DNA from: a virus
Lineage: Duplodnaviria > Caudoviricetes
IMG/VR virus record: IMGVR_UViG_3300036862_000046
Location: 1-58,991 of that record
Length of the DNA: 58,991 nt
Strand: one strand, 5' to 3'
The number at the start of each line of letters is the position of its first letter. Position 1 is the first letter of the stretch. The position numbers and the translations under genes are program-made. The notes under the pieces are model-generated. The model did no database searches, was not told the origin of the DNA, and worked only from the letters and a program-made list of their open reading frames with translations. Below, piece by piece: positions 44,020 through 58,991 of this stretch.

Positions 44020-44194
44020 CCGGACGGAAGCGGCACGTAGTCGTATCCGGGAAGTGGAGCGGTTCGCGTACAGGATCGTGAGTGAGTCCGAGGACAACGC
44101 GACGGAAGCGGCGCGTACGATACTTCGCCTAGCCATCGGGCTCAGGCGCAAACTAGACCAGTGGCAAGACGTCGCCACGCAAGAGGAGAAGTAG

Positions 44195-45111: not shown

Positions 45112-45209
45112 ATTCTGGGCATCTAGAGGACCGAACAAACGGATTAGTTAACTCGCGGCGGGCGCCTCGCGCTCTGCGCCTTCGCGCCGCCGCCTAGTGG
45201 GAGAAACGA

Positions 45210-45931: not shown

Positions 45932-48863
45932 TGTGAACGTCGGGACCATCGAGGCGGTCATCAAGCTTCGAGACGACATGTCTATCGCCCTGGTGGAGGT
46001 GACTAAGGCTCTCGGCGCGGTCACGGCTGCGCTGAAGCAGGCGCAGGACGCTACCGAGAAGCACTCGAACGCGAACGCGAAGGGCGCTAAAGAGAGTGAG
46101 GGAACTATCGGTTCCCTGGTCAAGATGGCTGCCGCGTACATCACGGTCCGCGGCGCTATCGACTTCGTGACGTCCTCTCTCCGCGCTCAGGGAGAATCCG
46201 AAGCCGCGGTCAACAAGCTCAACCTCGCCCTGGCTAATCAGGGCACCTTCACCGCGGCCACGAGCAAGAGCCTCATCGACTACTCCGCCGCGATGCAGGA
46301 CGTCTCGACTCAGAACGACGAGGCGATTCTCGGGTCTGAGGCGATGTTCACGCAGTTCGGTCTCGGAGAGGCCGCGACGAAGCGATCGACTCAGGCGGCC
46401 CTAGACCTCGCGGCCGGTCTCGGTGTCTCCTTGGAGCAGGCAACCCGAACTATCACGATGGCCCATGGCGGCCATACTGGCGCGCTGTCCAAGCTCGGGT
46501 TCTCGTTCGAAGAGGGGATGACCAAGGGTCAGAAGTTCGAGGCCGCGCTCGCGCAGATCGAGCAGAGGATGGGCGGCCAGGCGCTCGCCGCGACGAAGAC
46601 GTATCAGGGCGGCGTGGCTCAGCTCGGGAACGCGTGGGACGACGCCAAGGAGCAGTTCGGCAAGTTCCTTGGCGCTTTGTCCGGCGGACAGAAGCCCTTC
46701 GAGGATCTGATCGGCTGGGCGAAGGCCGCGGGAGACTTCTTCGGGAAGACTCTTCCCATAGTGTGGTCGGAGGCTAAGGCTCAGTACTTGGAGTTCATCG
46801 CGGCGATCGCTGAAGGAAACGCCAAGATCACCGGCGCCTTCGCGTCCATGTTCGAGACGATGGGCAAGGCGCTGTCGCACATCCCGTTGATGTCCGAGGA
46901 GTCCAAGGTCTTCTTGGACATAGGCAAGTCAATTCGAGGCGCGGCCGATCAAGAGGAGCAATTCGCGGTCCAGATGCGAAGCGGTGCCGCCGCCGCGAGG
47001 AAGTGGGGCGAGGAAGTCGCCGCGTCGTCCGGACATATTCAAGACGTCCGCAAGGGCCTGCACGGCGCTGGACCGGAACTCGACGAGATGTCGGAGGCCG
47101 CGAAGAAGGCCGCCGAGTCCCAGAAGAAGCTCGCCGAAGCTATCGCGGAGGTGGTTCAGAAGAACCGGGACCGCATGCAGCTCGAAGGGATCAAGCGTAA
47201 CGAGGACACGGATAAGGGTATGGCCGAGACTTTCAAGAACAACACGAAGATGCTCGTCGACGGACTGGAGGAAGAGGGCCGACTCTGGGAGGAGAACCAG
47301 AAGAAGATCAAGGCGATGTGGGAAGAGACGGACCGAGCGGCGGAAGCAGCCGCGCGGCTAGAACGCGCATACGCGCAGTCCGGACGTCAAGTCCAAGGGA
47401 TCTTCGCGGGACTCGGGCAGTCTATTGGCGGGTCGTTCGGCTCCGCGGTGAGCGTCGCGGGCTCTGCCCTTGGCGGGATGATCACGAAGAATACGGCAGG
47501 ACTCGGGAAGTTTGCGGAGGATCACAAGAAAGCTTTCCAAGGCGTCGGAGCGGCTATCAATGGCGCCTCCGCCGCGTGGGCCGCGGGCAGTCAGGCCGCG
47601 TCGAAGGGCGCGGGAGCTATGGCCGGCGCCGCCGCGGGCGCGAAGGCCGGCATGGCACTCGGGCCGTGGGGTGCCGCGATCGGCGCCGTCGTCGGCGGGG
47701 TCATCGGTTTCCTCGGCGCCGCTGCGCGCCTCCGTCGCGAACTCCAGGCCGCGAAGGACGACATCACGATGAACGCCGTCGGGATGGACAAGCTCCGCGA
47801 GGCCGCGGTGAAGGCCGGCGTCTCCCTGGAAGAGTTCATGAAGTCCGGCAAGGGCTTCGAGATGCTCAAGGTCAAGGCCACGGAGTTCGGCATCTCCCTC
47901 GACAAGCTCAACAACGCGAAGAACCTCAAGGACATCAAGGCGGCGCAGGACGAGATCAACCGCAGCTTCGCGATGTGGAAGACGCTCACGGACGCCAACG
48001 GCGGGTCGCTGGAGACCCTGAAGAAGAAGGCCGCGGAAGCGGGCATCAGCCTCCAGGCGGCTCTCACCGCCAAGGGCGCGGATCAACTCGCCCTGGCGCT
48101 CGACGTCGTGAAGAAGAAGCTCGGTGACTGGGACCAGGCGCACGAGAAGCTGAACGCTGCGGTGGAAAAGTACAAGTTCACCATCGAGGAACTCGGGCCG
48201 AAGTTCGCGCAGCAGAAGCTAGACGAGCAGTTCGGCACGCTCTTCGAAGACTACCAGCTCCTCTCCGCAGCCGGCGTGAGTCACGTCGCGATCATCGAGC
48301 GGATGGGGCCGGTGCTGAACGAGTACGTCAACAACGCCGTCGCCGCCGGCGGCACGATACCCGAAGCGATGCGTCCAGTTCTCGAGGAGATGATCAAGAA
48401 CGGACAGCTGCTCGACGCGAACGGCCACGCCTACCGCTCCGTCGAGGAAGCCGGCATCCAGTACGCGATGACGACGTCTGAGGCGATGGCGCTCCTCATC
48501 GACAAGATCACGACCCTGGTCAATGCGCTCCTCGGTATCCCGACCGACGTCAACACGAACGTCAACACGAACTACACGTCTTCCGGCGAGACCAACCCGG
48601 GCAGCGCGAGCGGCGGCGGGTTCCGCGGCGGAGACGAGCCCGGGTTCGCGTCCGGCTCCGCGGGGTTCCGTGACTTCGGCGCCGGCACCAGGGTCATGCT
48701 CCACGGCCGGGAGGCTGTCGTCCGCCAGGGGGACTCGATGCCGGGTGGCGGAGGTAACTCCGGGAACCTCGGCGCCGAACTCCGGGGCCTACGCGCCGAG
48801 CTGAAGAACCTCTCCCGTACGCTCCCGCGCGCGGTACGGGACGGCGTTCTCCTGGCCGGGTAA
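45924..48863 (+). CDS. Tape measure protein
   Basis: 979 aa Ala/Gly-rich helical; GPWGAAIGAVVGG; FASG..DFG.GT.VMLHG.EAV. Confidence 0.9.
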   Translation: MADVNVGTIEAVIKLRDDMSIALVEVTKALGAVTAALKQAQDATEKHSNANAKGAKESEGTIGSLVKMAAAYITVRGAIDFVTSSLRAQGESEAAVNKLNLALANQGTFTAATSKSLIDYSAAMQDVSTQNDEAILGSEAMFTQFGLGEAATKRSTQAALDLAAGLGVSLEQATRTITMAHGGHTGALSKLGFSFEEGMTKGQKFEAALAQIEQRMGGQALAATKTYQGGVAQLGNAWDDAKEQFGKFLGALSGGQKPFEDLIGWAKAAGDFFGKTLPIVWSEAKAQYLEFIAAIAEGNAKITGAFASMFETMGKALSHIPLMSEESKVFLDIGKSIRGAADQEEQFAVQMRSGAAAARKWGEEVAASSGHIQDVRKGLHGAGPELDEMSEAAKKAAESQKKLAEAIAEVVQKNRDRMQLEGIKRNEDTDKGMAETFKNNTKMLVDGLEEEGRLWEENQKKIKAMWEETDRAAEAAARLERAYAQSGRQVQGIFAGLGQSIGGSFGSAVSVAGSALGGMITKNTAGLGKFAEDHKKAFQGVGAAINGASAAWAAGSQAASKGAGAMAGAAAGAKAGMALGPWGAAIGAVVGGVIGFLGAAARLRRELQAAKDDITMNAVGMDKLREAAVKAGVSLEEFMKSGKGFEMLKVKATEFGISLDKLNNAKNLKDIKAAQDEINRSFAMWKTLTDANGGSLETLKKKAAEAGISLQAALTAKGADQLALALDVVKKKLGDWDQAHEKLNAAVEKYKFTIEELGPKFAQQKLDEQFGTLFEDYQLLSAAGVSHVAIIERMGPVLNEYVNNAVAAGGTIPEAMRPVLEEMIKNGQLLDANGHAYRSVEEAGIQYAMTTSEAMALLIDKITTLVNALLGIPTDVNTNVNTNYTSSGETNPGSASGGGFRGGDEPGFASGSAGFRDFGAGTRVMLHGREAVVRQGDSMPGGGGNSGNLGAELRGLRAELKNLSRTLPRAVRDGVLLAG

Positions 48864-51166
48864 TGGCAGTCACGCCCTTCCAGCCGATCGTCGAGGCGCT
48901 CCTCCCGATCGATCCCTCGACTCTGAGTCCCACGGCGTGGTACCGCTCCGACTCCCTGGAGGCGCTAGCGGACGGCGCGCTACTCGCTCAGTGGGACGAC
49001 GAGTCGGGTAACGGCCGACATCTCACGGCGCCTTCCGCCGGCGTCAAGCCGTCCGTCGCCAAGGGCATCCTCGGCAAGCGGTCCGCGGTCCGCTTCGACG
49101 GCGCGGCCAACCCGATGTACTTCACGACGGTCGGACCGCCCGCGTTCACGCTCGGGGACCTGATCACGGCCTCCGCCGGGACGGTCATCGCGGTGACGCG
49201 AGGCGATTCGGACGCCGTGGCCGGGAGCAGGATCTTCCACGCCGGCACCCTAGCGGACCTGGCCAACGGGCAGTCCGTCCGCCTGGTCTACACCGGCGTT
49301 ACGAACCTCCGCGCGGCGAACCGCAGCGGCTCGGCGCAGCAGATCATCGGGACACTGACTCCCGTCTCCGTGGACAACTGGTTCATCACGCAGTGGCGCC
49401 ACGGGAGCAGCCTCCAGTACATGGCGGCCGACGACCTCGACGACGACGGGATGAACTCCATCTCCAGCGGCGACACGGACTCCGCGGTCCTCGGATGGAG
49501 AGTGGGGGTCGGCGCCGTCGCGGACGGGACGTCGCTCCTCAAGGGCCACATCGCCGAGCTGATCTTCTTCGCCACGGACCTGACCCAGGCGCAGCGCCGA
49601 GGGGTCGCGCTCTACCTCGCTCGGAAGTACTCCCTGGTGTACGCGTCCACTATGCCGACGGACTGGACGACGCTGTCCGTCCTCGCGGATCCGGGCGTCA
49701 CCGCGGAGCGCGGGATACACGGCACGTCCTTCACGGACCGCGTCGCGTCGACGGGCACCATGTCCTTCGACCTGGACAACTCCTCGCGTCAGTACTCGCC
49801 CGACTCTCTCGCCGACTGGCTCGTAGGGTTCGACGTGGGGCTCGACGTCCGGCTCCGCGTCGTCTTCGACAACCTGAACCAGGTCATCTGGCGCGGACGC
49901 ATCGACGAGGTGACCCCGACCACGGGCAAGATCGGCCGGCGCGTCACGGTCCACGCCGTGGACTGGATGGACGAGGCCGCGAAGGCTAAGCTCTCCGTCC
50001 AGGCGGTCGTGACGGACAAGCGCTCGGACGAGATCTTCGTGATCCTCGCCGCGGCGGTGAACACCCAGCCTACCGCGACGACCTACACCCAGGGCGCGGA
50101 CACGTATCCCTACGCCTTCGACTCCGCGCGCGACGAAGACATTTCGGTGATGTCCGAGTTCCAGCGCGTGTGTATGTCCGAGATCGGGTTCGTGTACCTG
50201 AAGGGCGACGGCACCCTGGTATTCGAGGGCCGGAGGAAACGCGGTACCAGGAGCGTCGCCATCGCGACCCTCGCGGACGACAGGTCCACGGGCCTGGAAC
50301 TCAGCCGCGCGCGCTCCGCGATCCTGAATAACATCAAGGTGGAGTCCCACCCTCGCCGCAAGGACACGTCGAACCAGGTGCTCTTCACCCTGGAGCAGGC
50401 GCCCGCCATCCCGCGTATGACGTCCGCGACGTTCGTTTGTACGTACCGCGACCCGTCCCAGAAGTCTACCAGGGTGGGCGGGGTGTCAATGGTAGCGCCG
50501 GTCGTCACCACGGACTACCTCTTCAACGAGCTAGCGGACGGGACGGGAGTCGTGAGGACGACGCAGCTCACCGTCACCGCGACGTTCGGCGGTAACTCCG
50601 CGTCCGTGGTCGTGACGAACAACGGGCCTCAGGACGGCTTCCTGACGCTGCTCCAGCTCCGGGGGCTCGGGCTCTACGACTTCGAGACGGTGCTCTCCAC
50701 GTCCCGGGACACGGCGTCCGTCGCTCGCTACGGTGAGTGGGCGTACTCGGTCAGCATGCCCTACCAGGCAGACGCGGTCGTGGCGGCGGAGGCCGCGGCG
50801 TATATCGCGGCGAACAACAAGGACCCGCAGACCCGGATCTCGTCCGCGGAGATGAAGGCCGTGTCGTCGAGCACCAAGAAGTTCCTCATCAAGCGCGAGA
50901 TCTCGGACCGCATCACCGTCACGGAGACGCAGTCGGGAGTATCCGCAGACTACTTCGTCAACGGTATCTCCTACGAGTTCACGGGACACTCGCTCCCGCG
51001 CGTCACGTACACCCTGGCGCCGGCCGACACGACGGGGTACTGGACGCTCCAGGTCGCGGGGCTGTCGGAATTGGATCGGACGACGCGGCTCGGGTACGGC
51101 ATCTTCGTTGCGAAGTGGGTGCTCGATCTCTCGACGGTAAGCGTCGACACGATCGTGAACGTCTGA
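48863..51166 (+). CDS. Tail tip/baseplate protein with LamG-like domain
   Basis: AWYRSD, QWDD.SGNG.H, G.IAELI..L..YL..KY; RG..G..F.LDN, E.G..Y..GDG.L.F. Confidence 0.75.
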   Translation: MAVTPFQPIVEALLPIDPSTLSPTAWYRSDSLEALADGALLAQWDDESGNGRHLTAPSAGVKPSVAKGILGKRSAVRFDGAANPMYFTTVGPPAFTLGDLITASAGTVIAVTRGDSDAVAGSRIFHAGTLADLANGQSVRLVYTGVTNLRAANRSGSAQQIIGTLTPVSVDNWFITQWRHGSSLQYMAADDLDDDGMNSISSGDTDSAVLGWRVGVGAVADGTSLLKGHIAELIFFATDLTQAQRRGVALYLARKYSLVYASTMPTDWTTLSVLADPGVTAERGIHGTSFTDRVASTGTMSFDLDNSSRQYSPDSLADWLVGFDVGLDVRLRVVFDNLNQVIWRGRIDEVTPTTGKIGRRVTVHAVDWMDEAAKAKLSVQAVVTDKRSDEIFVILAAAVNTQPTATTYTQGADTYPYAFDSARDEDISVMSEFQRVCMSEIGFVYLKGDGTLVFEGRRKRGTRSVAIATLADDRSTGLELSRARSAILNNIKVESHPRRKDTSNQVLFTLEQAPAIPRMTSATFVCTYRDPSQKSTRVGGVSMVAPVVTTDYLFNELADGTGVVRTTQLTVTATFGGNSASVVVTNNGPQDGFLTLLQLRGLGLYDFETVLSTSRDTASVARYGEWAYSVSMPYQADAVVAAEAAAYIAANNKDPQTRISSAEMKAVSSSTKKFLIKREISDRITVTETQSGVSADYFVNGISYEFTGHSLPRVTYTLAPADTTGYWTLQVAGLSELDRTTRLGYGIFVAKWVLDLSTVSVDTIVNV

Positions 51167-51190
51167 TCGCGGTATAATAAGGAGATCTAA

Positions 51191-51478
51191 ATGGCCTGGA
51201 CTACGCCGCGAACCTGGGTGGCCGGAGAACTGGTCACCGAGACGGTGCTCAACACGGACCTGCGCGACAACCTCAACCTTCTCAAGACGTCGATCTCCGA
51301 CGCGGGGAAACTGAACGCGCTTTCTACGACGTACCTCGCTGATCTGAGCGGCGTGAACCTGACAGGCGTCTCTCTCCTCGCCTCGAACAACGTCCACACG
51401 GCTGGTATCAACAACTTCAACGGCGGCGCGGCTACCAGGGTCCTGATCCCGGTGGGTGCCGACCTCTGGGCCGTGTAA
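51191..51478 (+). CDS. Short tail-fibre-family protein
   Basis: MAWTTPRTW..GE.VT...N...RDNL; SD AAGGAG; CGGTATAAT upstream. Confidence 0.7.
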   Translation: MAWTTPRTWVAGELVTETVLNTDLRDNLNLLKTSISDAGKLNALSTTYLADLSGVNLTGVSLLASNNVHTAGINNFNGGAATRVLIPVGADLWAV

Positions 51479-51481
51479 GAG

Positions 51482-51652
51482 ATGCAGAGCTACTCATGCG
51501 ATACTTGTGGCGCTCCCGCGACGCTCGTCGTCGCGGATATGTCCGTAGACGGGTCAGGGTCGTGGGCGGTCTACTCGCCGACAGGTACCGGTCGATCCGG
51601 CTGCGACGAGCACACTGTAGAGAGCATCATCTCTAAGCACGAGCAGCCGTAA
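51482..51652 (+). CDS. Small CxxC...CxxH protein (56 aa)
   Basis: MQSYSCDTCGAPAT...GCDEH; TAATG coupling to next gene. Confidence 0.55.
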   Translation: MQSYSCDTCGAPATLVVADMSVDGSGSWAVYSPTGTGRSGCDEHTVESIISKHEQP

Positions 51653-52644
51653 TGGTGTGGACTTCGCCCCATACGTGGGCTGCTGCGGACCAGCCCACCG
51701 CCGACGCGACCGGAGGCGTGAAGGTTCCGATGAACCTTCACGTCAAGGGCAACATGGATGTTCTCAAGACAAGTATCGACGACGACGGGAAGCTCATCGC
51801 GCTCTCCTCGTCCTACGTCGCTGATCTCTCCGGGGTCAACCTCACCGGCCTCGCGCTGCTCGCCTCGAACGCGACCTACACCGCGGTCAACAACTTCAAC
51901 GGCGGAGGAGCGACGCGAGTGGTCCTGCCCGTCGGCGCCGACAAGTTCGGCGGAGCCGCAGGGAACAAGACGGCGGGGTCGTGGTGGGTGGAACTGACGG
52001 AACTTCATCACGTCTCGTCCGCGCAGGTCGAGTGGTACTACATCGGGACGGTCGTCTCGACCCCCGCCGGCGCTGTCGCGGGATCTGTATGGGTCGACAC
52101 CTCTGACGGTCTCATTCACTACGTCACGTCCGCCGGTGTAGAGCGCGCGGTCGGCGCGGTCATCACGTCGATGCACGCGGACGCGGCGGCGCTACCGGGC
52201 TCGTCTTGGGTAGATACGGACTCGCACCTCCACTGGGTCGCGACGGGCGGACAGGAGGAGGACGGGCATACGGACGTGCCGGCACATAGCGACGTCGCGC
52301 ATGATGACACGCACACGGACTCGCACGATGACGCGCACTCTGACGACCACAGCGACGAGCACTCGGATGGTGCGCATGACGACACGCACGACGACGTCAG
52401 CCATGCGGACTCGCACGCGGACCAGCACTTCGACGTAACGGATGCCGGACATCTGGACTCGCACGGAGACTCGCACAACGATACGGCGCACGACGACGGG
52501 CACGTAGACTCCGCGCATGACGACGCGCACGCGGATGACCACGATGACTCCCACGGGGACTCCGGGTCGACATCACATACTGACACGGCACATACTGACC
52601 ACACGGATACTCACGGAGACCAGCCCACGAGTCTCGGTACATGA
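51652..52644 (+). CDS. Tail-fibre-family protein with C-terminal His-x-Asp array (putative RiPP-like substrate)
   Basis: N-term paralogous to 51191 and 56020; 3x GS.WV repeats; 26 HxD triplets. Confidence 0.8.
   Translation: MVWTSPHTWAAADQPTADATGGVKVPMNLHVKGNMDVLKTSIDDDGKLIALSSSYVADLSGVNLTGLALLASNATYTAVNNFNGGGATRVVLPVGADKFGGAAGNKTAGSWWVELTELHHVSSAQVEWYYIGTVVSTPAGAVAGSVWVDTSDGLIHYVTSAGVERAVGAVITSMHADAAALPGSSWVDTDSHLHWVATGGQEEDGHTDVPAHSDVAHDDTHTDSHDDAHSDDHSDEHSDGAHDDTHDDVSHADSHADQHFDVTDAGHLDSHGDSHNDTAHDDGHVDSAHDDAHADDHDDSHGDSGSTSHTDTAHTDHTDTHGDQPTSLGT
52267..52620 (+). repeat. HxD peptide repeat array (26 units)
   Basis: Every His here is followed by x-Asp; codons diversified. Confidence 0.9.
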
Positions 52645-53900
52645 CGCTGGAAGTGAGCCTCCGTGGCGTTTCGTGCAACATGCGCTGCAGCTACTGCTAC
52701 CAGAATCCCGTCCGAGACTCCGGCACTCGTCCGCCCAAGATCGACATGGCCGCGGTGAAGGCTGCCCTGGTCCAGGAGATGGTGCAAGGAAAGAAGGGCG
52801 ACGGCTTCACCGTCTTCGGAGGCGAGCCGCTTTTGGCGACGCTGCCTGAACTCGAAGAGCTGTGGGCCCTCGGTCTCGCGACTGCTGGGAAGAACGGGGT
52901 CCAGACCAACGGGACGCTGATCACCGACGCGCACATCACGGCCTTCAAGCAGTACAAGGTACACGTCGGGTTCTCGGTCGACGGCCCCGGTCTCCTGAAC
53001 AGGAACCGCTGGCTGTTCTCCGACGCCGCGACGGACGCCGGCACGGCGAGGTCCCAGGCCGCCATCGAGCGATGTCTGGCGGAGGGCGTAGGCACCTCGC
53101 TCATCGTAACGCTGTCCCAAACCAACGCGGCTCCGGCCGTACTCCCAGAACTCCTCGCGTGGCTGACCGCCCTGGCTAGCCAGGGACTTCGCTCCGTCCG
53201 GGCCCACGTCCTGGAGGTCGACGGCAAGGAAGGTGAGGCGCTGAAGCTCACGCCGGAGGAGAACGTGGCCGCGCTCGCGGCGCTCGAGGCTCTGGAGGCG
53301 ACGACCCCGCTCCGCTTCGACGTGTTCTCTGACATCCGGAAGCTATTGACCGCAGACGACGATCAGGTGACTTGTGTCTACAACGCCTGCGATCCCTGGA
53401 CCACGCCGGCCGTGCGCGGCGTCGAGGCGGACGGCACGCGGACGAACTGCCAGCGTACCAATAAGGACGGCGTCAACTGGGTCAAGGGCGCCAAGACGTC
53501 CTACGTCCGCCAGCTCGGCCTCTACGCCACGACCCAGGCGAACGGTGGGTGCCAGGGCTGCCGCTTCTTCGTCGGGTGCAAGGGCCAGTGCCCCGGTACC
53601 GCGATAGACGGGGACTGGCGGAACCGCTCGCGCGACTGCCCTACGTGGTTCGCGATGTTCGAGAGGGAGGAGCGCCGGCTGTCGGCCGCGGGCCGCGTGC
53701 CCGTATCGCTCCGTCCCGACCTTCCGAAGATCGAGGCCGCGATGATGGGCGCCTTCGAGCGTGGCCAGTTCATGAGCGTCAAGGGCGCCGTGGCGGTGGC
53801 CGAGGGACGCGCGCCTGCGGCCGGTACTCTCGGGAATTTTCACGGAGATCATCACGGGGACAGTCACGGGGACTCTGACCGTGGTATAATTAAGGGATAA
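52641..53900 (+). CDS. Radical SAM/SPASM domain maturase
   Basis: CNMRCSYC, GGEPLL, QTNG, SVDGP; SPASM C..C, G..NC, CQGC.....C.G.CP, C. Confidence 0.9.
   Translation: MTLEVSLRGVSCNMRCSYCYQNPVRDSGTRPPKIDMAAVKAALVQEMVQGKKGDGFTVFGGEPLLATLPELEELWALGLATAGKNGVQTNGTLITDAHITAFKQYKVHVGFSVDGPGLLNRNRWLFSDAATDAGTARSQAAIERCLAEGVGTSLIVTLSQTNAAPAVLPELLAWLTALASQGLRSVRAHVLEVDGKEGEALKLTPEENVAALAALEALEATTPLRFDVFSDIRKLLTADDDQVTCVYNACDPWTTPAVRGVEADGTRTNCQRTNKDGVNWVKGAKTSYVRQLGLYATTQANGGCQGCRFFVGCKGQCPGTAIDGDWRNRSRDCPTWFAMFEREERRLSAAGRVPVSLRPDLPKIEAAMMGAFERGQFMSVKGAVAVAEGRAPAAGTLGNFHGDHHGDSHGDSDRGIIKG
53881..53890 (+). promoter_or_regulatory. Extended -10 promoter
   Basis: GTGGTATAAT ahead of the endonuclease ATG. 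Confidence 0.45.
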
Positions 53901-54595
53901 TGCACTATCTCTTGTACGCTCTTTACTCCTCACGAGACATCTCGCGACCTAAGTACGTCGGTAAGACTGGTGACCCTGCGAGAAGGCTGCGGCGGCACGT
54001 CTACGACGCGCTGCGGGGTGGAGAGACCTATAAGGACCGGGGCATCCGTAAGGAATACCGCGAAGGTTTCGATGTCTTACCGCGTCCCCTCGCTTGGTTC
54101 GCGACGGAGGCCGAGTGCTTCACTGCGGAGATGTATCTCATAGCTAAATGGCGCGGGAATCTGTGGAACACTACGGCGGGCGGGGAAGGCTTTTCAGGAC
54201 CGCACTCGGCGGAACACAACTTAGCGGTCAGCGTAGCTAAGAAAGGTAAGAGTACCGGGCCTCTGTCTGAAGCAACCAAAGCCAAGATGAGCGCGTCTAC
54301 CAAGGGAAAACCTCATTCGGCCGAGCATAACGCAGCATCGGGCCTTGCCAATCGCGGCCGCAAGCGAACAGCCGAGGCTCGCCACAGAATGCGCATCGCG
54401 AGATTGAATTGGCTGAGTCAAAAGTCCATGTCTTCCGAGACCAGGGCAAAAATGAGCGCGGCGACCCGGGGCAGGCCACACTCGGCGGAGCATAATGCGG
54501 CTGTCGGGCTTGCAAATCGCGGCAAGAAACGTACGCTCGCATCCCGGGCAAAAATGAGCGCGGCGCGGCGAGCGTATTTTTCGAGAATACGTTGA
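53900..54595 (+). CDS. GIY-YIG-type homing endonuclease with NUMOD3 repeats
   Basis: LYALYSS..KYVGKT, N...GGEG, PHSAEHN x3. Confidence 0.85.
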   Translation: MHYLLYALYSSRDISRPKYVGKTGDPARRLRRHVYDALRGGETYKDRGIRKEYREGFDVLPRPLAWFATEAECFTAEMYLIAKWRGNLWNTTAGGEGFSGPHSAEHNLAVSVAKKGKSTGPLSEATKAKMSASTKGKPHSAEHNAASGLANRGRKRTAEARHRMRIARLNWLSQKSMSSETRAKMSAATRGRPHSAEHNAAVGLANRGKKRTLASRAKMSAARRAYFSRIR

Positions 54596-56016
54596 AGGAG
54601 TTCTTCGACGGTCCCGTGTGGTCCTCCACCGCGAACCAGAAGCTCTGGGAGCCTCGGCTGCGCGCCATATCGAACGCGTGGCAGGAGCTGGAACTCCGGA
54701 GCGTGGCGGCGGGACTCCGCAACTCCGCGCTCGTGACTATTCCCATCGAGACCTTCGCGGCGAGACAGCAGGCAGCCCTGGACGTGGGACTCGTGTCGAC
54801 CGTACTCGGGTCCACGTTCTCGGCCGACTCCTACGCTGCGGGCCCTACGTCCTCCGGTCGCCCGGCGCTCCGCGTCGCGGTACACCGGCCTGGGCTGGGA
54901 AAAGACTGGCGTGAAGCGTGGGCTGGGTCAGATAACGAGACCATCGGCGTTCTCCTCGGTTTCCCGGCGTGCTGCCGTAAGTTCTTCCATACCGCTTGGA
55001 CCGGCGCAGGGGGCATAGACTCGACCCCGGCGATGTGGGGCGTCGAGGGCCCCGCGATCTCGAACATCCTTCTCCGGTGGCTCGGCGTACGCCTCGTGCC
55101 TCATCTTCCCTGTCGCGGAGACTGCACCGCGACGGCGAGTCAGGCCGGAGACTTCCACAACCTCGGCCGCACGACCGGGCTAGGGGACGTGATGGACTGG
55201 GCCGAGGAAGCTCTCGGATGGCCGATGACCTGGAGCGCGACCAACGGGATAGGGGAGGTCGTGACCCCGGTCCTCAAGTTCCGGTTCTCCACGGTCGTGA
55301 GCCCGAGTACGGTCCTCCGTTCCAGGAAAGGCACCGTTCCGCTAAGCGCGGAACAACGGGAGACCCGGAACGACCCGCGCGCGTCCGCGGTGTGGACGAG
55401 CAACGGGTTCGCGTCCTTCGACTCGATGAAGTCCGCACACGCCGTCGTGATGAACGCCGTCAAGGCGTCCGGCTTCACCGGGGGCCGGGTCCTCGACCTC
55501 GGGTGCGGGGACGGGCGGCTGCTGAGCTGGATCACGCTGATCTTCCCGGGTACCGAGGGGTACGGGATCGACACGGACGCCGGGCGGATCGCCAGGGGCA
55601 AGGACCGAGACCCTCGCCTGCATCTCGGGGTGGACGACATCTCGAATTTCGGGCTGCCGGAGCCGGGGGACGAGCCGTGGGACCTGGTACTCCTGATGCC
55701 CGGGAGACTCCTGGAGTTCGATCGCGGCATAGACCTCGCGCGGCTCTTGCCGCAGATCGCGAAGCGCGTCGTCGTGTACGCGTACGGCGACTGGCTGGCC
55801 CGCTACGGGGCGAGGGAAGAAGGTTCCGGACTAGTCCCGCTCGCCGAGGACGCGGGGCTTCGGCTGTCGAGCGCCGTCATATACGGACCCGGGGTCGCTG
55901 CGGCCACGGTGAAACTGGTCTGCGGTGCGCGAACGTGTCAAGACGCGATCTGCGATGCTCCGGTATTTCCTGGGCATCATCACGACGGGCCGTCTTTCCC
56001 GTCCGAAGAGGAATAA
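54592..56016 (+). CDS. Cys-motif (DUF483-like) domain fused to class I SAM methyltransferase
   Basis: G.LLGFPACC..FF, N.LLRWLGVR.VPHLPC..DC; VLDLGCGDG, GID. Confidence 0.75.
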   Translation: MKEFFDGPVWSSTANQKLWEPRLRAISNAWQELELRSVAAGLRNSALVTIPIETFAARQQAALDVGLVSTVLGSTFSADSYAAGPTSSGRPALRVAVHRPGLGKDWREAWAGSDNETIGVLLGFPACCRKFFHTAWTGAGGIDSTPAMWGVEGPAISNILLRWLGVRLVPHLPCRGDCTATASQAGDFHNLGRTTGLGDVMDWAEEALGWPMTWSATNGIGEVVTPVLKFRFSTVVSPSTVLRSRKGTVPLSAEQRETRNDPRASAVWTSNGFASFDSMKSAHAVVMNAVKASGFTGGRVLDLGCGDGRLLSWITLIFPGTEGYGIDTDAGRIARGKDRDPRLHLGVDDISNFGLPEPGDEPWDLVLLMPGRLLEFDRGIDLARLLPQIAKRVVVYAYGDWLARYGAREEGSGLVPLAEDAGLRLSSAVIYGPGVAAATVKLVCGARTCQDAICDAPVFPGHHHDGPSFPSEEE

Positions 56017-56019
56017 GCG

Positions 56020-56607
56020 ATGGCGTGGACCACCCCGAGGACCTGGAACCCAGGCGAGTTTGTAACTGCTACGATGATGAACGCGCATGTGCGCGACAAC
56101 CTCAACATCGTCAAGACGTCCGTCGCGGACGACGGGCTCCTGAACGAGTTGGTCGTCGCGACCATCCTCGCGTCGGCGAACGTCACGACGGGGGAGACGG
56201 ACCTCGCGGGATACACCTATACCGTCGCGGCGGGTAAGTTCGCGGACGGCGAGGGTCTGGAGATCCACGCTACGGGGACGCTCGCGGCGAACACGAACAC
56301 GAAGACGCTCCGGATCGACGTCGGCGGCCAGAAGGTGACCCTGGTCCTCAACACGACGAACGTCGCGAGCAACGTGTTCAATGTCCGGGTGCGGGTGATC
56401 CGTAACGCTGCGACGACGGCTATCCTCACGGGGACGTCGAGCTTCAACGCGGCGTCCGGCGCTGCGCCTACGGTCTGGCACTTCGCCGCGGCTATCTCCT
56501 CGCTCACCTGGTCCGGCGCGACGATCGTCAAGCTCACCGCGCAGTCCAGCGCAGCGTCGAACGACATCATCATGTCGTCCGGGCAGTTCGAGATCAAGGC
56601 TTCGTGA
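56020..56607 (+). CDS. Tail-fibre-family protein with C-terminal beta-sandwich
   Basis: MAWTTPRTW..GEFVTA..MN.HVRDNL. Confidence 0.7.
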   Translation: MAWTTPRTWNPGEFVTATMMNAHVRDNLNIVKTSVADDGLLNELVVATILASANVTTGETDLAGYTYTVAAGKFADGEGLEIHATGTLAANTNTKTLRIDVGGQKVTLVLNTTNVASNVFNVRVRVIRNAATTAILTGTSSFNAASGAAPTVWHFAAAISSLTWSGATIVKLTAQSSAASNDIIMSSGQFEIKAS

Positions 56608-57350
56608 TCGACTGGAGCCGGGTCGCAGAGCCGTCGTTCTATTCTAACCGGCGCATCCAGGAATACGCGCAGTGTCGCTGGCCCGGCCTCCGCACCGGAC
56701 ACTTCGACGTAGAGATACTCGGGCGGGAACTGTCCGAGGCGTATGGCCCCGCGGAGATACCGACCGTTAATCCAGTCCTCGACTGCCTAGACGCCTGGCC
56801 CGAAGGCGAGCAAGCCGTGTTCGGCGCGGCAGGGTGCTTCTGGCCCGTGGCCAGGGCCGATGGTAAGCCCGGCGGACTCGGCTGCATGTGCGGCCACGAC
56901 GAGCCGTCGGCGGCCCGGCCCTACGCGACGATCTACGCCTCGACGTGGGATCCAGTCGGCGGTGCCGAGGGTCTCGTTCACGAGGCGGGCCATCTCCGCC
57001 TCAAAGCGCTCGGCGTACAGCTCGAGACCCACGACGGCTTGCTTCTCTCAAACAGCCCAACGGAGCTGTTTGAGAGTCCCATCCGTAAAGACAAACTCCG
57101 ACCGATGTCCGCGGTCCTCCAGGCGCAGTATTCCTACGTGATGGTGACCGCTCTCGACGTCGCCCTGGCTGACGCGGCGCACGCGGCGATTAACCTCCCT
57201 CGGATCCTCGAGGGACGGGAGACCCTTCGGCACTCCGCCAGGTGGACTGCCGAAGGGTCTGAGTTCGCACGCGGGCTGTACGACTGGACGACCCGGGTCG
57301 TCGACGCCGCCCTGAAAATAACAGTGGACAACCGGGCTGTCAGGGCATAG
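56604..57350 (+). CDS. alphaKG-HExxH-type peptide beta-hydroxylase-like protein
   Basis: AEGLVHEAGHLRL...ESPIRKDKLRPMSAVLQAQYSY. Confidence 0.8.
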   Translation: MIDWSRVAEPSFYSNRRIQEYAQCRWPGLRTGHFDVEILGRELSEAYGPAEIPTVNPVLDCLDAWPEGEQAVFGAAGCFWPVARADGKPGGLGCMCGHDEPSAARPYATIYASTWDPVGGAEGLVHEAGHLRLKALGVQLETHDGLLLSNSPTELFESPIRKDKLRPMSAVLQAQYSYVMVTALDVALADAAHAAINLPRILEGRETLRHSARWTAEGSEFARGLYDWTTRVVDAALKITVDNRAVRA

Positions 57351-57353
57351 ATT
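57325..57353 (+). promoter_or_regulatory. Sigma70-type promoter
   Basis: AAAATAAC then TGGACA-17 bp-TAGATT. Confidence 0.5.
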
Positions 57354-57385
57354 GCCTCCGTACGTTGAGATTCAAGGAGGCCAAC

Positions 57386-57685
57386 ATGAGAACGAAGAGA
57401 GAAGCCCGTACCCACGGCGGCAGGCCCCGTAACTCTCGGGAGCTCCGCAAGATCGACAGGAGACGCGAGGACCGAGGAATACCGGCGCCGGTCCGCAGGC
57501 AGTCCCTCGGCGCTCCTACGGCCGACGAGGTCCGTCGGGTCCGTCAGATGCGTCGGGAGGGCCAGACCTACGTCGAGATCGACAAGGCCATGGGATGGCC
57601 TGACGCCCACGGCGGACGTACCTGGTACCTGCTCAACGTCCCGACGGCGTACCGGTCCGGCCGTAAGGTCCAGAGGCACCGGTGA
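57386..57685 (+). CDS. Basic HTH-like protein
   Basis: SD AAGGAGG; VRQMRREGQTYVEIDKAMGWPD. Confidence 0.6.
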   Translation: MRTKREARTHGGRPRNSRELRKIDRRREDRGIPAPVRRQSLGAPTADEVRRVRQMRREGQTYVEIDKAMGWPDAHGGRTWYLLNVPTAYRSGRKVQRHR

Positions 57686-57861
57686 GCCGGTACAGCGTGG
57701 AAGCCGTTAGGGTCGAGAGGGCCAGCGTCTTCGTCGAGGCAGACAGCCCGGAGGCCGCGGTGGCCACGGTCAAGGGGTTCATCTTCGCCGGCGGGATCCA
57801 GTTCGCCCAGTTCTGGAAAGACGCCACGATGAGCTGGCAGTTCAAGGCGACTCTAAAATAA
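57682..57861 (+). CDS. Small hypothetical protein (59 aa)
   Basis: GTGA overlap; VEADSPEAA. Confidence 0.55.
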   Translation: MSRYSVEAVRVERASVFVEADSPEAAVATVKGFIFAGGIQFAQFWKDATMSWQFKATLK

Positions 57862-57864
57862 CTG

Positions 57865-57894
57865 TGTACTCCGGCCGCCTCCCTGTGTTAGGAT
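57865..57894 (+). promoter_or_regulatory. Sigma70-type promoter
   Basis: AAAATAAC then TGTACT-18 bp-TAGGAT. Confidence 0.45.
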
Positions 57895-57926
57895 GGTGCT
57901 ACCGTCATAGGGAGGCGGCCTAAAAG

Positions 57927-58145
57927 ATGAGTCACCTCACGGTCCCGGTAGGGACCCTCGAACACGACGACGCCTTCGTGACCCCCCTCACGGGTCGACT
58001 GGGCCGGATGATAGACTTCCCCGGACTCACCCGTCCTCTGGACGAGGAGGAGTACGGGGAGCTCCACGGCGGGGTCGTGGTTCGCTTCTCCGACGGCATG
58101 GTCAAGGAGCTGCACCGCGACGTGCTGGTGCGGCCTCTCCAGTGA
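57927..58145 (+). CDS. Hypothetical protein
   Basis: SD GGAGG; GTGA overlap with next gene. Confidence 0.55.
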   Translation: MSHLTVPVGTLEHDDAFVTPLTGRLGRMIDFPGLTRPLDEEEYGELHGGVVVRFSDGMVKELHRDVLVRPLQ

Positions 58146-58927
58146 AGTTCCACGAGGCCTGGCACGACGTTCTAGACGCCACGCTCCACGCCGGCATCGA
58201 GTCCGCCCCGCGCGGGAAGAGAGTCCTCGAGCGCATCGGTGTCGCGGTGAGGTTCGACGGCCTGAGCGCGTTGCTCGTTCACCCCGGACGGGCGCTCAAC
58301 TACCGCTTCGCCGTGGCCGAGTGGCTGTGGATCGCGCGCGGTATCGACCTCCTCGCTCCCTTGACGCGGTACAACTCCCGGATGGCCGAGTTCTCGGACG
58401 ACGGGGAGACCCTGGCCGGCGCGTACGGACCGCGGCTCCTGGGCCAGTGGGCGTACGTCGTGGACAAGCTCCGGGACGACCCGGACTCCCGCCAGGCGGT
58501 AGCGTCGATCTGGACGCCGAACCCCGCGCCCTCGAGGGACGTCCCCTGCACCCTCTCCGTGCAGTTTCTGGTCCGCGACGGTCGGGTCCACGGGATCTGG
58601 AACATGCGCTCCAGCGACCTATGGCTCGGCCTCCCCTACGACGCCTTCAGCTTCGCCCGTCTTACGTCCTGCGTCGCCGGCGAGTTGGGTCTCCGGACGG
58701 GCTTCGTGGAGATCCACGCTGGGTCGAGTCACCTGTACAAGGAGCACTGGGGCTCCGCCATCCGCGTCATCGGACGCCGCCCCGACGGCAGAACTGTCCG
58801 CTCGCCCGAGCTGACCGGTTTCCCACAGTTCGCAGGAACGTTTCATCAGGAGCCGTGGTCCAGGTACGCCGACGTCCTCGAGTCCCGGTCCTCGGCCGCG
58901 GCTCTCGAGGTCCTGGAGCGACCGTGA
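58142..58927 (+). CDS. Thymidylate synthase-family protein, probable dCMP (hydroxy)methylase
   Basis: PRG, AE.LW, GAYGPR, SRQAV, DVPC, MRSSD.WLG.PYD, SSHLY. Confidence 0.85.
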   Translation: MKFHEAWHDVLDATLHAGIESAPRGKRVLERIGVAVRFDGLSALLVHPGRALNYRFAVAEWLWIARGIDLLAPLTRYNSRMAEFSDDGETLAGAYGPRLLGQWAYVVDKLRDDPDSRQAVASIWTPNPAPSRDVPCTLSVQFLVRDGRVHGIWNMRSSDLWLGLPYDAFSFARLTSCVAGELGLRTGFVEIHAGSSHLYKEHWGSAIRVIGRRPDGRTVRSPELTGFPQFAGTFHQEPWSRYADVLESRSSAAALEVLERP

Positions 58928-58991
58928 CCCGCAGGCCTCTCCCGATCCGGGTCGCGGCTGTGATCGTTTACGGCCTCACGTTCTACTTCGC
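58865..58991. repeat. Terminal direct repeat, copy 2
   Basis: Identical to 1-127. Confidence 0.95.

Follow-up and report, generated by a model that had tools for sequence, protein, structure and literature searches.

A His-x-Asp array at the end of a phage tail-fiber-type protein and its association with a putative radical SAM crosslinking enzyme

Gene organization of the locus

The window (the whole 58,991-nt stretch of viral DNA that was analyzed) carries, within a block of tail genes, a gene for a 330-amino-acid (aa) fiber-type protein, here termed the HxD protein (51652-52644, plus strand), which ends in a long series of His-x-Asp units. All of the genes described below are on the same strand. 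Just 5' lies a gene for a 767-aa virion/tail-type protein (48863-51166) that matches the virion structural protein family phrog_10356 (E 2.6e-14). Homologues of this product, identified with phmmer, are present in 20 of the 148 loci of our census, each of which contains a relative of the radical SAM enzyme of the window, and in 12 related phage loci the homologue bears an HxD array directly at its own C-terminus. (In the census, an array was scored when it had at least 8 His and lay no more than 6 kb away.) Next comes a 95-aa protein (51191-51478) that consists of an N-terminal anchor module alone, MxWTxPxTW...LPVGAD. This anchor is shared with the HxD protein (56% identity over 98 aa, covering aa 1-97; E 2e-34), which in turn shares it with a third protein of 195 aa encoded farther downstream (56020-56607; 42% identity over 48 aa, E 7e-10). 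The C-terminal part of this third protein is different and has no His repeats; its homologues occur in 21/148 loci. A fiber anchor common to two paralogues, as proposed when the sequence alone was read, is therefore present. The same short anchor-only gene is found 5' of the HxD gene in other loci (L005, L024, L033, L045, L059, L063 and L135). Stop-codon read-through from an anchor-only ORF into the next ORF was considered, given several in-frame pairs, and was rejected because the downstream genes each have their own Met start and a full anchor. The reading of the HxD protein as a structural protein is supported by the anchor that it shares with two paralogues and by the place of its gene in a tail block, where a major tail protein match and genes for large virion proteins precede it.

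The HxD gene ends in an ATGA overlap, its stop codon sharing bases with the start codon of the next gene, which encodes a 419-aa radical SAM/SPASM enzyme (52641-53900), the proposed maturase; by this overlap the two genes are predicted to be translationally coupled. A gene resembling GIY-YIG/NUMOD3 homing endonucleases follows (53900-54595; NUMOD3 E 2.1e-8), with a GIY-YIG match (E 3.8e-4, 21.1 bits) that falls just below the cut-off of 22.6. No homologue of it is present in the 148 related loci, and it is an insertion that lies outside the module.

Downstream of the insertion, a fused gene (54592-56016) encodes a Cys/His domain (aa ~1-260) and, by its Pfam match, a class I SAM methyltransferase domain (aa ~285-405). 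The product is 34% identical (E 2e-40) to Cumys_11 of a Thermus phage, annotated as a "DUF483-domain protein". The Pfam DUF483 model (PF04467, cut-off 25 bits) gives no match at E <= 1 to the domain of the window (aa 1-273) and 16.1 bits for the Cumys orthologue, and in the nearest ESM Atlas clusters PF04467 is found on only ~20% of members; the domain is therefore called DUF483-like. Residues P125, C127, C128, H171, P173, C174 and C178 are invariant. The domain is modeled with confidence (pLDDT 90.7), and a Foldseek search of the PDB with this model returned nothing at E <= 0.001. In a wide VIA search the top match was 2guk, whose function is unknown (Z 7.2), and the cysteine methyltransferase NleE reached a Z of 4.7; neither value is strong enough for a fold or function to be assigned.

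The last gene considered (56604-57350) encodes a 248-aa peptide beta-hydroxylase of the aKG-HExxH type, which scores above the curated cut-off (TIGR04267.2, 55.3 bits against 40, E 7.7e-15) and has a visible HEAGH motif. Its homologues are present in 31/148 loci, 18 of which have an array. Among the neighboring genes, models of the Hxs proteins find no match, and PADLOC returns only generic radical SAM and methyltransferase matches. Within the phage collection that was searched, neither tblastn with the HxD protein nor megablast with positions 40000-58991 gives a match; thus, the window has no close cultured relative in that collection.

The HxD protein and its array

Four portions can be distinguished in the HxD protein: the anchor (aa 1-97), a region of GSxWV..LH hairpin repeats (aa 108-196), the array (aa 206-323), and a cap, QPTSLGT (52621-52641), which follows the last HxD unit and corresponds in relatives to QPT(V/x)V(P/S), xPE(S/N)(I/M)GT or QPV.(V/I)G(P). 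The three GSxWV(E/D)..LH(H/Y)(V/I) repeats (51973-52239), already visible to the sequence-only reading, occupy aa 108-121, 143-158 and 182-196, directly 5' of the array; they are also conserved among relatives. An additional HxD unit, HAD at His175 (52174-52182), precedes the third repeat and is invariant in an alignment of 9 sequences (A3); with it, 27 of the 34 His of the protein belong to HxD units.

The array itself extends from His206 (nt 52267) to Asp323 (nt 52620), and each of its 26 His is followed by x-Asp. The sequence-only reading had described 26 strict triplets, in which x is T, S, D, A, F, L, G, N or V, separated by spacers of 0-5 residues and written in varied codons, and all of this is borne out by the counts. 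The x position is occupied by exactly these residues (D seven times, T five, S four, A and G three each, and F, L, N and V once each), the distance from His to His is 3-8 residues, and both codons are used for His (CAC 17, CAT 9) and for Asp (GAC 28, GAT 8). Asp is found at offset +2 from all 26 His, at +1 from seven, at +3 from two and at +4 from none, and His is not present at +2 in any case (0/26). When the 125-aa tail was shuffled 100,000 times, the mean number of HxD units was 7.42 and the maximum was 17; a value of 26 was never reached. In A3 the His and Asp columns of the array are invariant, and the x and spacer positions vary.

Such a tail might be a chance low-complexity stretch created by DNA slippage, or might be read in the wrong frame. 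Long ORFs in other frames and on the minus strand do cover the same bases (for example, 52119-52604, minus); these are taken to be mirror images of the repeated codons. Tandem Repeats Finder reports five weak period-12 rows over the array DNA (1.9-3.6 copies, 67-90% matches), with scores of 34-44, where the default threshold of the tool is 50, and finds no strong DNA tandem repeat there. However, the shuffling result and the variation in codons and spacers argue against slippage, as had been claimed from the sequence alone, and the array frame continues that of an N-terminal domain with paralogues and orthologues. In addition, orthologues found with the non-array part only (residues 1-205) keep the motif: at 41-61% identity to the HxD protein, 21/21 have an ordered C-terminal array, of 9-27 units, in which 431 of 443 His are HxD and a further 6 are HxN. 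The strictness of the motif, which had been put forward as a check, thus extends across homologues, and unordered His/Asp-rich tails were not encountered. Slippage or a wrong frame is refuted as far as sequence analysis reaches and is almost certainly not the explanation.

An AlphaFold2 model of the HxD protein monomer, built from a 9-row alignment, has a mean pLDDT of 44, and the array (~45) has no secondary structure; the GSxWV repeats are the sole part at pLDDT 63-76 and are modeled as beta hairpins. Prediction of a trimer from three full-length copies returned no answer (score 0.00).

The radical SAM/SPASM enzyme

The enzyme matches the radical SAM family PF04055 (43.7 bits, cut-off 29.5) and contains the CxxxCxxC motif for the SAM-binding 4Fe-4S cluster (C12/C16/C19), which is invariant in 37 relatives. 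This motif starts at residue 12, leaving no N-terminal recognition domain before it. The C-terminal SPASM pattern comprises seven Cys, Cx9-15Gx4C ... Cx2Cx5Cx3C ... C. By motif, it is present here as C250-x14-G265-x4-C270, C304-x2-C307-x5-C313-x3-C317 and C333, all invariant in alignment A1, as is C245 in the same 37 relatives; the Pfam SPASM model gives no match at E <= 0.01.

The best NCBIfam matches are to AmcB, DynA, anaerobic sulfatase maturase and YhhB, which are matched by 37/37 of the aligned family members, and all of these families, like the other curated families nearest to the enzyme, act on peptides or proteins. The scores are far below the cut-offs (in bits, AmcB 72.5/425, YhhB 55.4/445, GrrM 38.8/310, XyeB 36.3/450, FxsB 35.5/370); the curated cut-offs of the cyclophane synthases (XyeB, GrrM/OscB, FxsB, YhhB, AmcB) are reached by 0/37 members, and the alignments span only the N-terminal 110-200 residues. 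Consequently, the enzyme is placed outside all characterized cyclophane synthase families. The enzyme sequence matches only three solved chains, which are those of anaerobic sulfatase maturase and of the radical SAM domain of ChlB (9gm3, E 8.2e-7).

The array could also be a substrate of this enzyme for chemistry other than a His-Asp cyclophane, such as beta-carbon oxidation of the sulfatase-maturase type, epimerization, a His-Asp link of another kind, or a small change that adds carbon, comparable to the +8 Da reported on an HxS unit of HxsA. Anaerobic sulfatase maturase is matched by all 37 members (best E 2e-23) with scores about equal to those of the cyclophane families, a methyltransferase domain accompanies the module in 78/148 loci, and the change reported for the His-x-Ser unit of the HXS system is +8 Da rather than -2 Da (PMC13128918). 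However, a strict three-residue register with an aromatic residue 1 and a beta-CH2 at residue 3 is the usage of cyclophane synthases, and in the one characterized fused system an HExxH hydroxylase is described as acting on cyclophane scaffolds. Neither point is decisive; nevertheless, another chemistry is considered unlikely.

The enzyme carries the motif as well. Its own C-terminal tail, HGD-H-HGD-S-HGD (aa 401-411; 53841-53873), has three HGD units, and such tails are common in relatives, which were not found with the single sequence as query but were found with alignment A1. Among the enzyme homologues listed, 94/120 have at least two HxD in the last 60 aa, and 70 of the best 150 cluster representatives have an HxD tail or array, of up to 25 units, on the enzyme itself; in 62 of 135 unfused enzymes the last 70 residues are free of HxD. 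The HGD tail would either serve as a substrate built into the enzyme or imitate one. No co-variation between enzyme tail and array motif was seen, since HxN-rich arrays (below) lie beside enzymes that keep HGD tails.

The module and arrays across relatives

In the census, the DUF483-like gene is present in 135/148 loci and starts right after the enzyme gene. Fusions among the relatives of the enzyme include 31 of rSAM-DUF483 (3 with HExxH, 2 with a methyltransferase) and one of rSAM-HExxH. A His array is located no more than 6 kb from the enzyme in 111/148 loci: adjacent upstream in 72, further upstream in 18 and downstream in 21. The other 37 show no array within that distance. When only loci with full flanks are counted, an array is present in 71/89 and missing in 18/89, and among the viral contigs of this group it is present in 32/33.

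Across 105 non-redundant arrays with 2936 His, the residue at +2 is D in 91.7%, N in 3.8%, H in 1.2% and Ser in <0.3%. Arrays that are at least 90% HxD make up 81/111, and in 85/111 the array ends within 15 aa of the end of the protein. HxN-rich arrays occur in L032 (38 D and 36 N) and in L050-L054, where N is in the majority. The 111 arrays are borne by unrelated proteins of 110-2000 aa: GSxWV fibers (36, including those of Thermus phages Cumys and phiMa, in which the repeats likewise precede the array), baseplate-type proteins (12), proteins with a Tat-like signal (18), giant proteins (20) and others (25). The association with the enzyme thus tracks the array, not the carrier protein.

The converse question, whether arrays occur without a maturase, had been raised as a possible refutation of the substrate reading. 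A reverse search, using a DNA pattern for four HxD units at a spacing of 4, gave at least 119 loci, most of which are perfect simple repeats without the enzyme. Among the loci listed, 13 complex arrays were picked by eye; seven are on contigs already known through the enzyme and six are independent. In 5/6 of the independent cases the enzyme is on the same record, and the exception is a record estimated to be 52% complete. As far as tested, therefore, arrays without a maturase seem to occur rarely.

His and Asp are classic metal ligands, and an i/i+2 spacing places both on one face of a beta-strand. Accordingly, the array may be an unmodified metal-binding module, in which the three His and three Asp of a trimer create octahedral sites and the radical SAM module serves some other purpose. 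The array of the window is carried by a fiber-type protein, and a precedent exists: HxH motifs at the tip of T4 gp37, also His-based i/i+2 motifs repeated along a phage fiber protein, hold seven iron ions and are also found in the fibers of other phages (PMC11705849). However, the motif of the window is H-x-D, is far denser (every 3-8 residues), is linked to a radical SAM enzyme and is also present on non-fiber proteins; with H at +2 in only 1.2% of the 2936 His and in none of the 26 in the window, it is not HxH. Metal binding alone leaves unexplained why the enzyme is found next to arrays on unrelated carriers, such as Tat-signal and giant proteins, and why the motif is present on the enzyme itself. 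Furthermore, Asn, a poor ligand, replaces Asp in L032 and L050-L054, an interchange that seems to fit beta-carbon chemistry better than carboxylate metal ligation. An unmodified metal-binding array is thus improbable, although metal binding could coexist with modification.

Comparison with known systems

Triceptides and the HXS defense system are the nearest known relatives. His is a proven residue 1 of three-residue cyclophanes, in the motifs HAA (made by HaaB), HNR (YhhB) and HTK (HtkB) (PMC11499958) and in HAS (MicB) (PMC12912966). In triceptides, the bond runs from His-C2 to the beta-carbon of residue 3. The system of the window has in common with triceptides the repeated three-residue units with an aromatic residue 1 and a beta-CH2 at residue 3, a radical SAM/SPASM gene beside the substrate (26 H-x-D units in the window, arrays in 111/148 loci), the presence of triceptide families among the best curated matches of the enzyme (AmcB, YhhB, GrrM, XyeB, FxsB), and hydroxylase and methyltransferase partners. 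In contrast, the enzyme is far below every family cut-off, H-x-D is absent from the motifs given in the portions of PMC11499958 and PMC12912966 that were available, and there are 26 units in the window and up to ~90 in relatives rather than one to a few. A DUF483-like partner and a phage structural gene block also set the window apart. Finally, a triceptide is a small, leader-dependent peptide that is cut out; the HxD protein, with 330 aa and an anchor domain, is not a small leader-core precursor released by proteolysis, and the array is kept on a virion-type protein. The same is true of the arrays in general, which stay on proteins of 110-2000 aa, unlike cut-out triceptides, a feature that counts against a crosslink.

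A second comparison is with the ChlB-type fusion of radical SAM and aKG-HExxH domains, in which the HExxH enzyme beta-hydroxylates Asp and His after the cyclophane has formed (PMC12636437). Here as well a radical SAM enzyme and a hydroxylase would share one substrate, rSAM-DUF483-HExxH and rSAM-HExxH fusions are present in the family of the window enzyme, and the ChlB radical SAM domain is one of its few structural matches. However, the window encodes the two enzymes in separate genes, with 2.7 kb between them, and HExxH is present in only 31/148 loci.

In the HXS anti-phage system, the His-x-Ser repeats of HxsA are matured by the radical SAM proteins HxsB and HxsC together with HxsD (PMC13128918). 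Both systems involve a protein, rather than a small peptide, with tandem His-x-small-residue units; as described, HxsA is matured in the cytoplasm and then exported, and the radical SAM enzyme is bound by a partner protein that is small or unknown. Bacterial HxD proteins also carry Tat-like export signals. Nevertheless, the window does not contain an HxsABCD system: the HxsB model scores 26.8 bits on the window enzyme against a cut-off of 370, there is a single radical SAM gene rather than two, and His-x-Ser repeats are not present. Five basic HxS repeats are found there and 8 to ~90 acidic HxD units here, with Ser at <0.3% of +2 positions, and the substrate is a host defense effector in one case and a phage virion-type protein in the other.

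The module itself has been seen before. A three-gene "rSAM module" of Thermus phages Cumys and phiMa, for which DNA modification was proposed (10.1101/2024.08.14.607894; also PMC11437467), is the same module, its radical SAM protein being 47-49% identical and its DUF483-like protein 34% identical to those of the window. Cumys_13, the upstream "hypothetical protein", combines three repeats of the GSxWV type with 54 HxD units and is likewise located in a baseplate/tail-fiber block. The window differs in having a methyltransferase fusion, an HExxH hydroxylase, an anchor with paralogues and an inserted homing endonuclease. If the radical SAM, DUF483-like and methyltransferase proteins modify phage DNA, then the HxD protein would be an unrelated neighbor. 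In support of this, radical SAM and DUF483 homologues are reported beside deazapurine DNA-modification genes in cyanobacterial genomes, and DUF483 is reported fused to methyltransferase or radical SAM domains (10.1101/2024.08.14.607894). However, the nearest curated enzyme families all act on peptides or proteins, the HxD motif is present on the enzyme itself, the association of array and enzyme persists across unrelated carriers, and a peptide hydroxylase co-occurs. In the text of 10.1101/2024.08.14.607894 that was available, the word "histidine" occurs 0 times and the His-x-Asp repeats are not mentioned. DNA modification is thus a very improbable function of the module.

A proposed pathway for crosslinking

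Taken together, conserved synteny, ATGA coupling, the strictness of the motif, its link to the enzyme across unrelated carriers, the type of enzyme, the motif on the enzyme, the domain fusions, the reverse search and the hydroxylase in the cluster argue for the array as a substrate, and the proposal from the sequence-only reading of a multi-core substrate grafted onto a structural protein gains comparative support from the anchor, the tail block and the coupling to the enzyme. It is moderately probable that the HxD protein is a tail-fiber-type virion protein whose last 125 residues form a multi-site substrate of the adjoining radical SAM/SPASM enzyme and are crosslinked from His to Asp; if modified, the array is probably crosslinked in a triceptide-like manner. 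The pairing of array and enzyme in more than 100 phage and bacterial loci suggests a virus that introduces chemical crosslinks into a part of its own particle. Points that weigh against a crosslink include the enzyme scores below cut-off, the equal nearness of sulfatase maturase, the lack of an N-terminal recognition domain, the 37/148 loci with no array (18/89 with full flanks), the 62/135 unfused enzymes whose ends are free of HxD, and the missing co-variation of tail and array. Literature searches found neither His-x-Asp repeats described together with a radical SAM enzyme nor radical SAM maturation of phage fibers; the supplements of the Thermus phage preprint and of the triceptide papers may list further loci or motifs, perhaps including H-x-D.

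A possible series of steps, each drawn from gene association and family resemblance, is as follows. The HxD protein would be synthesized in the cytoplasm, where the enzyme would cleave SAM reductively, creating a 5'-deoxyadenosyl radical. This radical would abstract hydrogen from the beta-carbon of residue 3 of an H-x-D unit (Asp; Asn in some relatives), and the resulting carbon radical would then attack the imidazole of residue 1, giving a three-residue, His-to-Asp C-C crosslink. Repetition would produce up to 26-27 crosslinks per chain. Subsequently, the aKG-HExxH enzyme may beta-hydroxylate residues of the rings, and the DUF483-like/methyltransferase protein may assist or methylate. The expected product would be a stiff rod at the fiber end, resistant to proteases and heat and possibly able to chelate metal. 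The complete version of this scheme, in which a phage-borne RiPP-type pathway (radical SAM crosslinker, DUF483-like/methyltransferase and aKG-HExxH) turns the fiber end into ~26 His-Asp rings, and in which the array is a portable C-terminal tag that is also present on bacterial Tat-exported and giant proteins, is plausible, though we would not count on all of its parts.

Implications

Because the module is present in cultured phages (Cumys and phiMa, on T. thermophilus HB8), the question of modification is directly testable. If the array is unmodified, phage fibers carry a very large and strictly ordered array of His/Asp metal ligands, which would be relevant to the debate over metal binding in phage tails. 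If it is modified, there is a new motif, H-x-D/N, a new enzyme family, an uncharacterized Cys/His partner (the DUF483-like domain) and tens of sites per chain, and the published suggestion of DNA modification for the Thermus phage module is replaced by an alternative that can be tested. Phage biology would then gain a new fiber material, and enzymology a processive, multi-site crosslinker. Should the crosslinks prove true, radical SAM crosslinking of a virion protein would be seen here for the first time, on a multi-core substrate larger than any known. Use of the same tag by bacteria would define a new family of post-translational crosslinks at the protein level, comprising at least 294 enzyme clusters (50% identity). 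Radical SAM peptide crosslinking, known from small natural products and one defense effector, would then also build virus particles.

The HxD array of the fibre-type protein

The gene at 51652-52644 (+) encodes the HxD protein, a fibre-type product of 330 aa whose C-terminal portion, from His206 to Asp323 (nt 52267-52620), contains 26 His residues, 26/26 of which lie in an H-x-D triplet. The x residues are D (7), T (5), S (4), A (3), G (3), and F, L, N, and V (1 each), the set listed in the sequence-only reading, and the His-to-His spacing of 3-8 agrees with the 0-5 residue spacers described there. All 26 array His have Asp at +2, and Asp also occupies +1 in 7 cases and +3 in 2; when the 125-aa tail is shuffled (100,000 shuffles), the mean HxD count is 7.42 and the maximum 17, versus the real 26. 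Codons are mixed (His: CAC 17, CAT 9; Asp: GAC 28, GAT 8), and Tandem Repeats Finder detects only weak repeats of period 12 (five rows, scores 34-44, 67-90% matches). Together, the mixed codons, the weak period-12 rows, and the excess over shuffled tails argue, as had been proposed, for a protein-level pattern rather than recent slippage. Slippage or a wrong frame is ruled out as far as the sequence can tell.

Upstream of the array, the three expected GSxWV..LH repeats span aa 108-196; an extra HxD, at His175, precedes the third repeat and is invariant among relatives. The suspected fibre anchor, common to two paralogues, is also recovered: aa 1-97 match the product of 51191-51478 (56% identity, E 2e-34), and the N-terminus matches the product of 56020-56607 over 48 residues (E 7e-10). 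Structure predictions of the HxD protein gave no usable model. With residues 1-205 as query, 21 relatives (41-61% identity) are found, and 21/21 have ordered C-terminal arrays of 9-27 His each, after which comes a conserved cap (for example, QPTVV or PESIGT). Since 431/443 of these His are in HxD (6 are in HxN), the strictness of the motif extends to the orthologues.

Genome setting and gene order

The window, which is an entire virus record (58,991 bases), has a G+C content of ~65%, and almost all of its long ORFs are on the + strand. The genes for the terminase large subunit (29936-31762), portal (34052-35614), major head protein (38556-39719), and major tail protein (42934-44019) are present, as are replication genes. 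The HxD gene closes the tail block, 3' of the genes for virion-type proteins of 979 aa and 767 aa (the latter, tail-type, at 48863-51166, +). Between these and the HxD gene lie the anchor-only paralogue (51191-51478, +) and a 56-aa ORF with CxxC ... CxxH (51482-51652, +), which is in the same frame as the paralogue, one stop codon away, and has no family match and no homologue among 148 related loci. The HxD gene is followed by that of the radical SAM enzyme (52641-53900, +), whose ATG overlaps the HxD-gene TGA (ATGA). Downstream are genes for a GIY-YIG/NUMOD3 homing-endonuclease-like protein (53900-54595, +), a DUF483-like domain plus class I methyltransferase (54592-56016, +), the third anchor paralogue (56020-56607, +), and an aKG-HExxH peptide beta-hydroxylase (56604-57350, +; TIGR04267, 55.3 bits versus a cut-off of 40).

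The endonuclease-like gene splits the radical SAM gene from the DUF483-like gene, with overlaps of 1-4 bases at both ends. In related loci the DUF483-like gene begins directly 3' of the enzyme gene, and no endonuclease homologue is found by phmmer in any of the 148; because of this absence, the gene appears to have entered the operon recently. Elsewhere, a thymidylate-synthase-like product (58142-58927, +) scores at best 70 bits, well below the curated cut-off of 327, and may be not ThyA but a relative that modifies nucleotides; an 840-aa protein (6819-9341, +) has weak PHROG matches to DNA methyltransferase and tRNA methyltransferase.

The radical SAM enzyme and its partners

The enzyme contains a radical SAM domain (PF04055, 43.7 bits versus a cut-off of 29.5), in which CxxxCxxC occupies residues 12-19. 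The SPASM cysteine pattern, as given in the literature, is complete in the C-terminal half (C250-x14-G-x4-C270, C304-x2-C-x5-C-x3-C317, C333), and both sets of cysteines are invariant across 37 relatives. The recorded protein (P0005, 384 aa) begins at residue 36 and thus lacks CxxxCxxC, which the longer ORF from 52641 regains in agreement with the N-termini of relatives. Among curated families, the enzyme is closest to AmcB (cyclophane-forming, E 3.2e-20), DynA, anaerobic sulfatase maturase, and YhhB; these models are matched by 37/37 aligned members, none of which approaches a curated family cut-off. Solved structures matched by sequence are limited to the radical SAM domain of ChlB and anaerobic sulfatase maturase. 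From these relatives, the enzyme is assigned to the SPASM branch whose members abstract a hydrogen from a side chain of a peptide or protein, outside every described family.

That placement bears on an earlier proposal. The same three-gene module has been described in some prophages and in the Thermus phages Cumys and phiMa, with the suggestion that it modifies DNA (10.1101/2024.08.14.607894); in the accessible text of this preprint the repeats are not mentioned. DNA modification is at odds with the peptide-modifying relatives of the enzyme and leaves the repeats out of account. In the mostly open-access literature searched, neither a pairing of His-x-Asp repeats with a radical SAM enzyme nor maturation of phage fibres by radical SAM chemistry is reported; on the module itself, the search gave only the Thermus preprint.

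The family comprises 1415 proteins at E <= 0.001 among 8000 candidates scored; representatives at 50% identity number 294 (E <= 1e-30), 494 (E <= 1e-10), and 2258 (E <= 0.001). The enzyme itself ends in HGD-H-HGD-S-HGD, and among 120 listed homologues the last 60 residues contain at least two HxD in 94, one in 3, and none in 23. Among the 150 best cluster representatives, 42 have a tail of 3-6 HxD and 28 a longer array (7 or more HxD in 60 aa, 25 units at most). A DUF483-like domain is fused to 31, together with HExxH in 3 and with methyltransferase in 2; HExxH alone is fused to 1, and 48 are plain enzymes. In P0156, P0173, P0174, and P0214, 14-25 HxD units share a polypeptide with the enzyme, making these enzyme-array fusions. 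The DUF483-like protein has invariant C127, C128, H171, C174, and C178 and a confident predicted structure, for which structure searches found no fold match.

Association of the array with the enzyme

The 148 related loci (66 viral and 80 genome loci found with alignment A1, the latter being the best 80 of 210 relatives, and 2 Thermus phage loci) include near-duplicates. For the counts, ORFs run from stop to stop, phmmer was used with single sequences (E <= 1e-4), and arrays were called by simple rules. With window proteins as phmmer queries, the DUF483-like domain is found in 135/148 loci and the methyltransferase domain in 78; the HExxH hydroxylase, the GSxWV region, and the 767-aa protein are found in 31, 32, and 20, respectively. 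In 115/148, an ORF within 6 kb has 8 or more HxD. Under a strict rule (8 or more His spaced <=12 apart, half or more of them Hx[DN], the ORF of the enzyme itself left out), arrays are present in 111/148 loci (105 distinct): 72 adjacent upstream, 18 further upstream, and 21 downstream. Where at least 4.5 kb is available on both sides, the array is found in 71/89 (viral 32/33, phage records 2/2, genome 37/54). A contig labelled Nitrososphaeraceae archaeon (L127) carries a short HxD array alongside an enzyme relative and a DUF483-like gene; the module may cross domains, or the archaeal bin may include a viral or bacterial contig.

The carriers are diverse, ranging from 110 to 2000 aa, and the array ends <=15 residues from the C-terminus in 85/111. 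Arrays follow GSxWV-type repeats (phage fibre type) in 36/111, including Cumys_13 of a Thermus phage (54 units); are fused to homologues of the 767-aa protein in 12; follow a Tat-like signal (RRxF/L...AGW) in 18, in bacterial genome bins and mostly 3' of the DUF483-like gene; lie on proteins of at least 850 aa in 20; and have other carriers, including collagen-like Gly-x-y fibres, in 25. Judged from these loci, it is the array, not the carrier protein, that accompanies the enzyme. In viral contigs L020, L021, and L060, collagen-like repeats lead straight into an HxD/HxN array (25 D, 15 N), a second kind of fibre bearing the tag. In genome contigs L070-L097, L111, and L112, small bacterial proteins have a Tat-like RRxFTRRALIRAGW... 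with 8-84 HxD units immediately behind it; their genes lie ~2.5 kb 3' of the enzyme gene, after DUF483-like/methyltransferase genes; bins with this non-phage version include Actinomycetota, Acidobacteriota, Chloroflexota, and others.

In a reverse search of viral records, a nucleotide pattern encoding four HxD units spaced by 4 finds at least 119 loci, most of which are perfect simple repeats without the enzyme. Thirteen complex arrays were chosen by eye, 7 of them on contigs already known through the enzyme. The expectation that arrays do not occur without a maturase stands for five of the 6 new ones (enzyme in the locus in 3, elsewhere on the record in 2) and not for L190, whose record, estimated to be 52% complete, has no enzyme.

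The 105 non-redundant arrays hold 2936 His, of which 91.7% have D at +2, 3.8% N, and 1.2% H, with others each <=0.5%; x is mainly G, S, T, or A and seldom P, K, or R. At least 90% of units are HxD in 81/111 arrays and Hx[DN] in 92/111. Some arrays are mixed (L032, 38 D and 36 N) or have N in the majority (L050-L054); in viral contigs L050-L054, L032, and L014, where HxN is about as frequent as HxD or more frequent, the enzyme tail is still HGD. Metal binding by the array without modification, in the manner of the HxH motifs of T4 gp37 (PMC11705849), is chemically plausible, but it leaves unexplained the HxN variants, the association with the enzyme across unrelated carriers, and the motif on the enzyme itself. 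Asp/Asn interchange would fit beta-carbon chemistry better than carboxylate ligation.

Proposed function

The nearest concepts to the HxD module are triceptides, ChlB-type enzymes (HExxH fused to radical SAM), and the HXS defence system. Three-residue cyclophane synthases use an aromatic residue 1 and a residue 3 with a beta-CH2 (PMC11499958, PMC12912966), and in these enzymes a radical at the residue-3 beta-carbon attacks the residue-1 ring. His is a proven residue 1 in HAA, HNR, and HTK (PMC11499958), and a HAS unit acquires a His-C2 to Ser-C-beta bond (PMC12912966). The array keeps this register: residue 1 is aromatic, and residue 3 bears a beta-CH2 beside a carbonyl. In a ChlB-type system, the HExxH enzyme fused to the radical SAM domain beta-hydroxylates Asp and His once the cyclophane has been made (PMC12636437). 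The window's hydroxylase (56604-57350) is of the HExxH type, fusions of which with the enzyme family exist. Given this register, the His precedent, and the hydroxylase, the array is most likely a multi-site substrate of the enzyme, with putative His-to-Asp crosslinks. The tie between array and enzyme across carriers and the motif on the enzyme itself likewise favour the earlier suggestion of a multi-core substrate grafted on a structural protein.

It is quite possible that the array is a substrate for a different chemistry: sulfatase maturase scores equal those of the cyclophane families, and in HXS, whose protein of five HxS repeats matures through radical SAM enzymes before its export, the change on an HxS unit is reported as +8 Da (PMC13128918). 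With crosslinking as the preferred reading, the Tat-like signals of the bacterial versions would fit cytoplasmic maturation preceding export. In the phage, His would be crosslinked to Asp 26-27 times per array, perhaps with subsequent hydroxylation or methylation, and the product would be a stiff, resistant fibre end, possibly metal-chelating.
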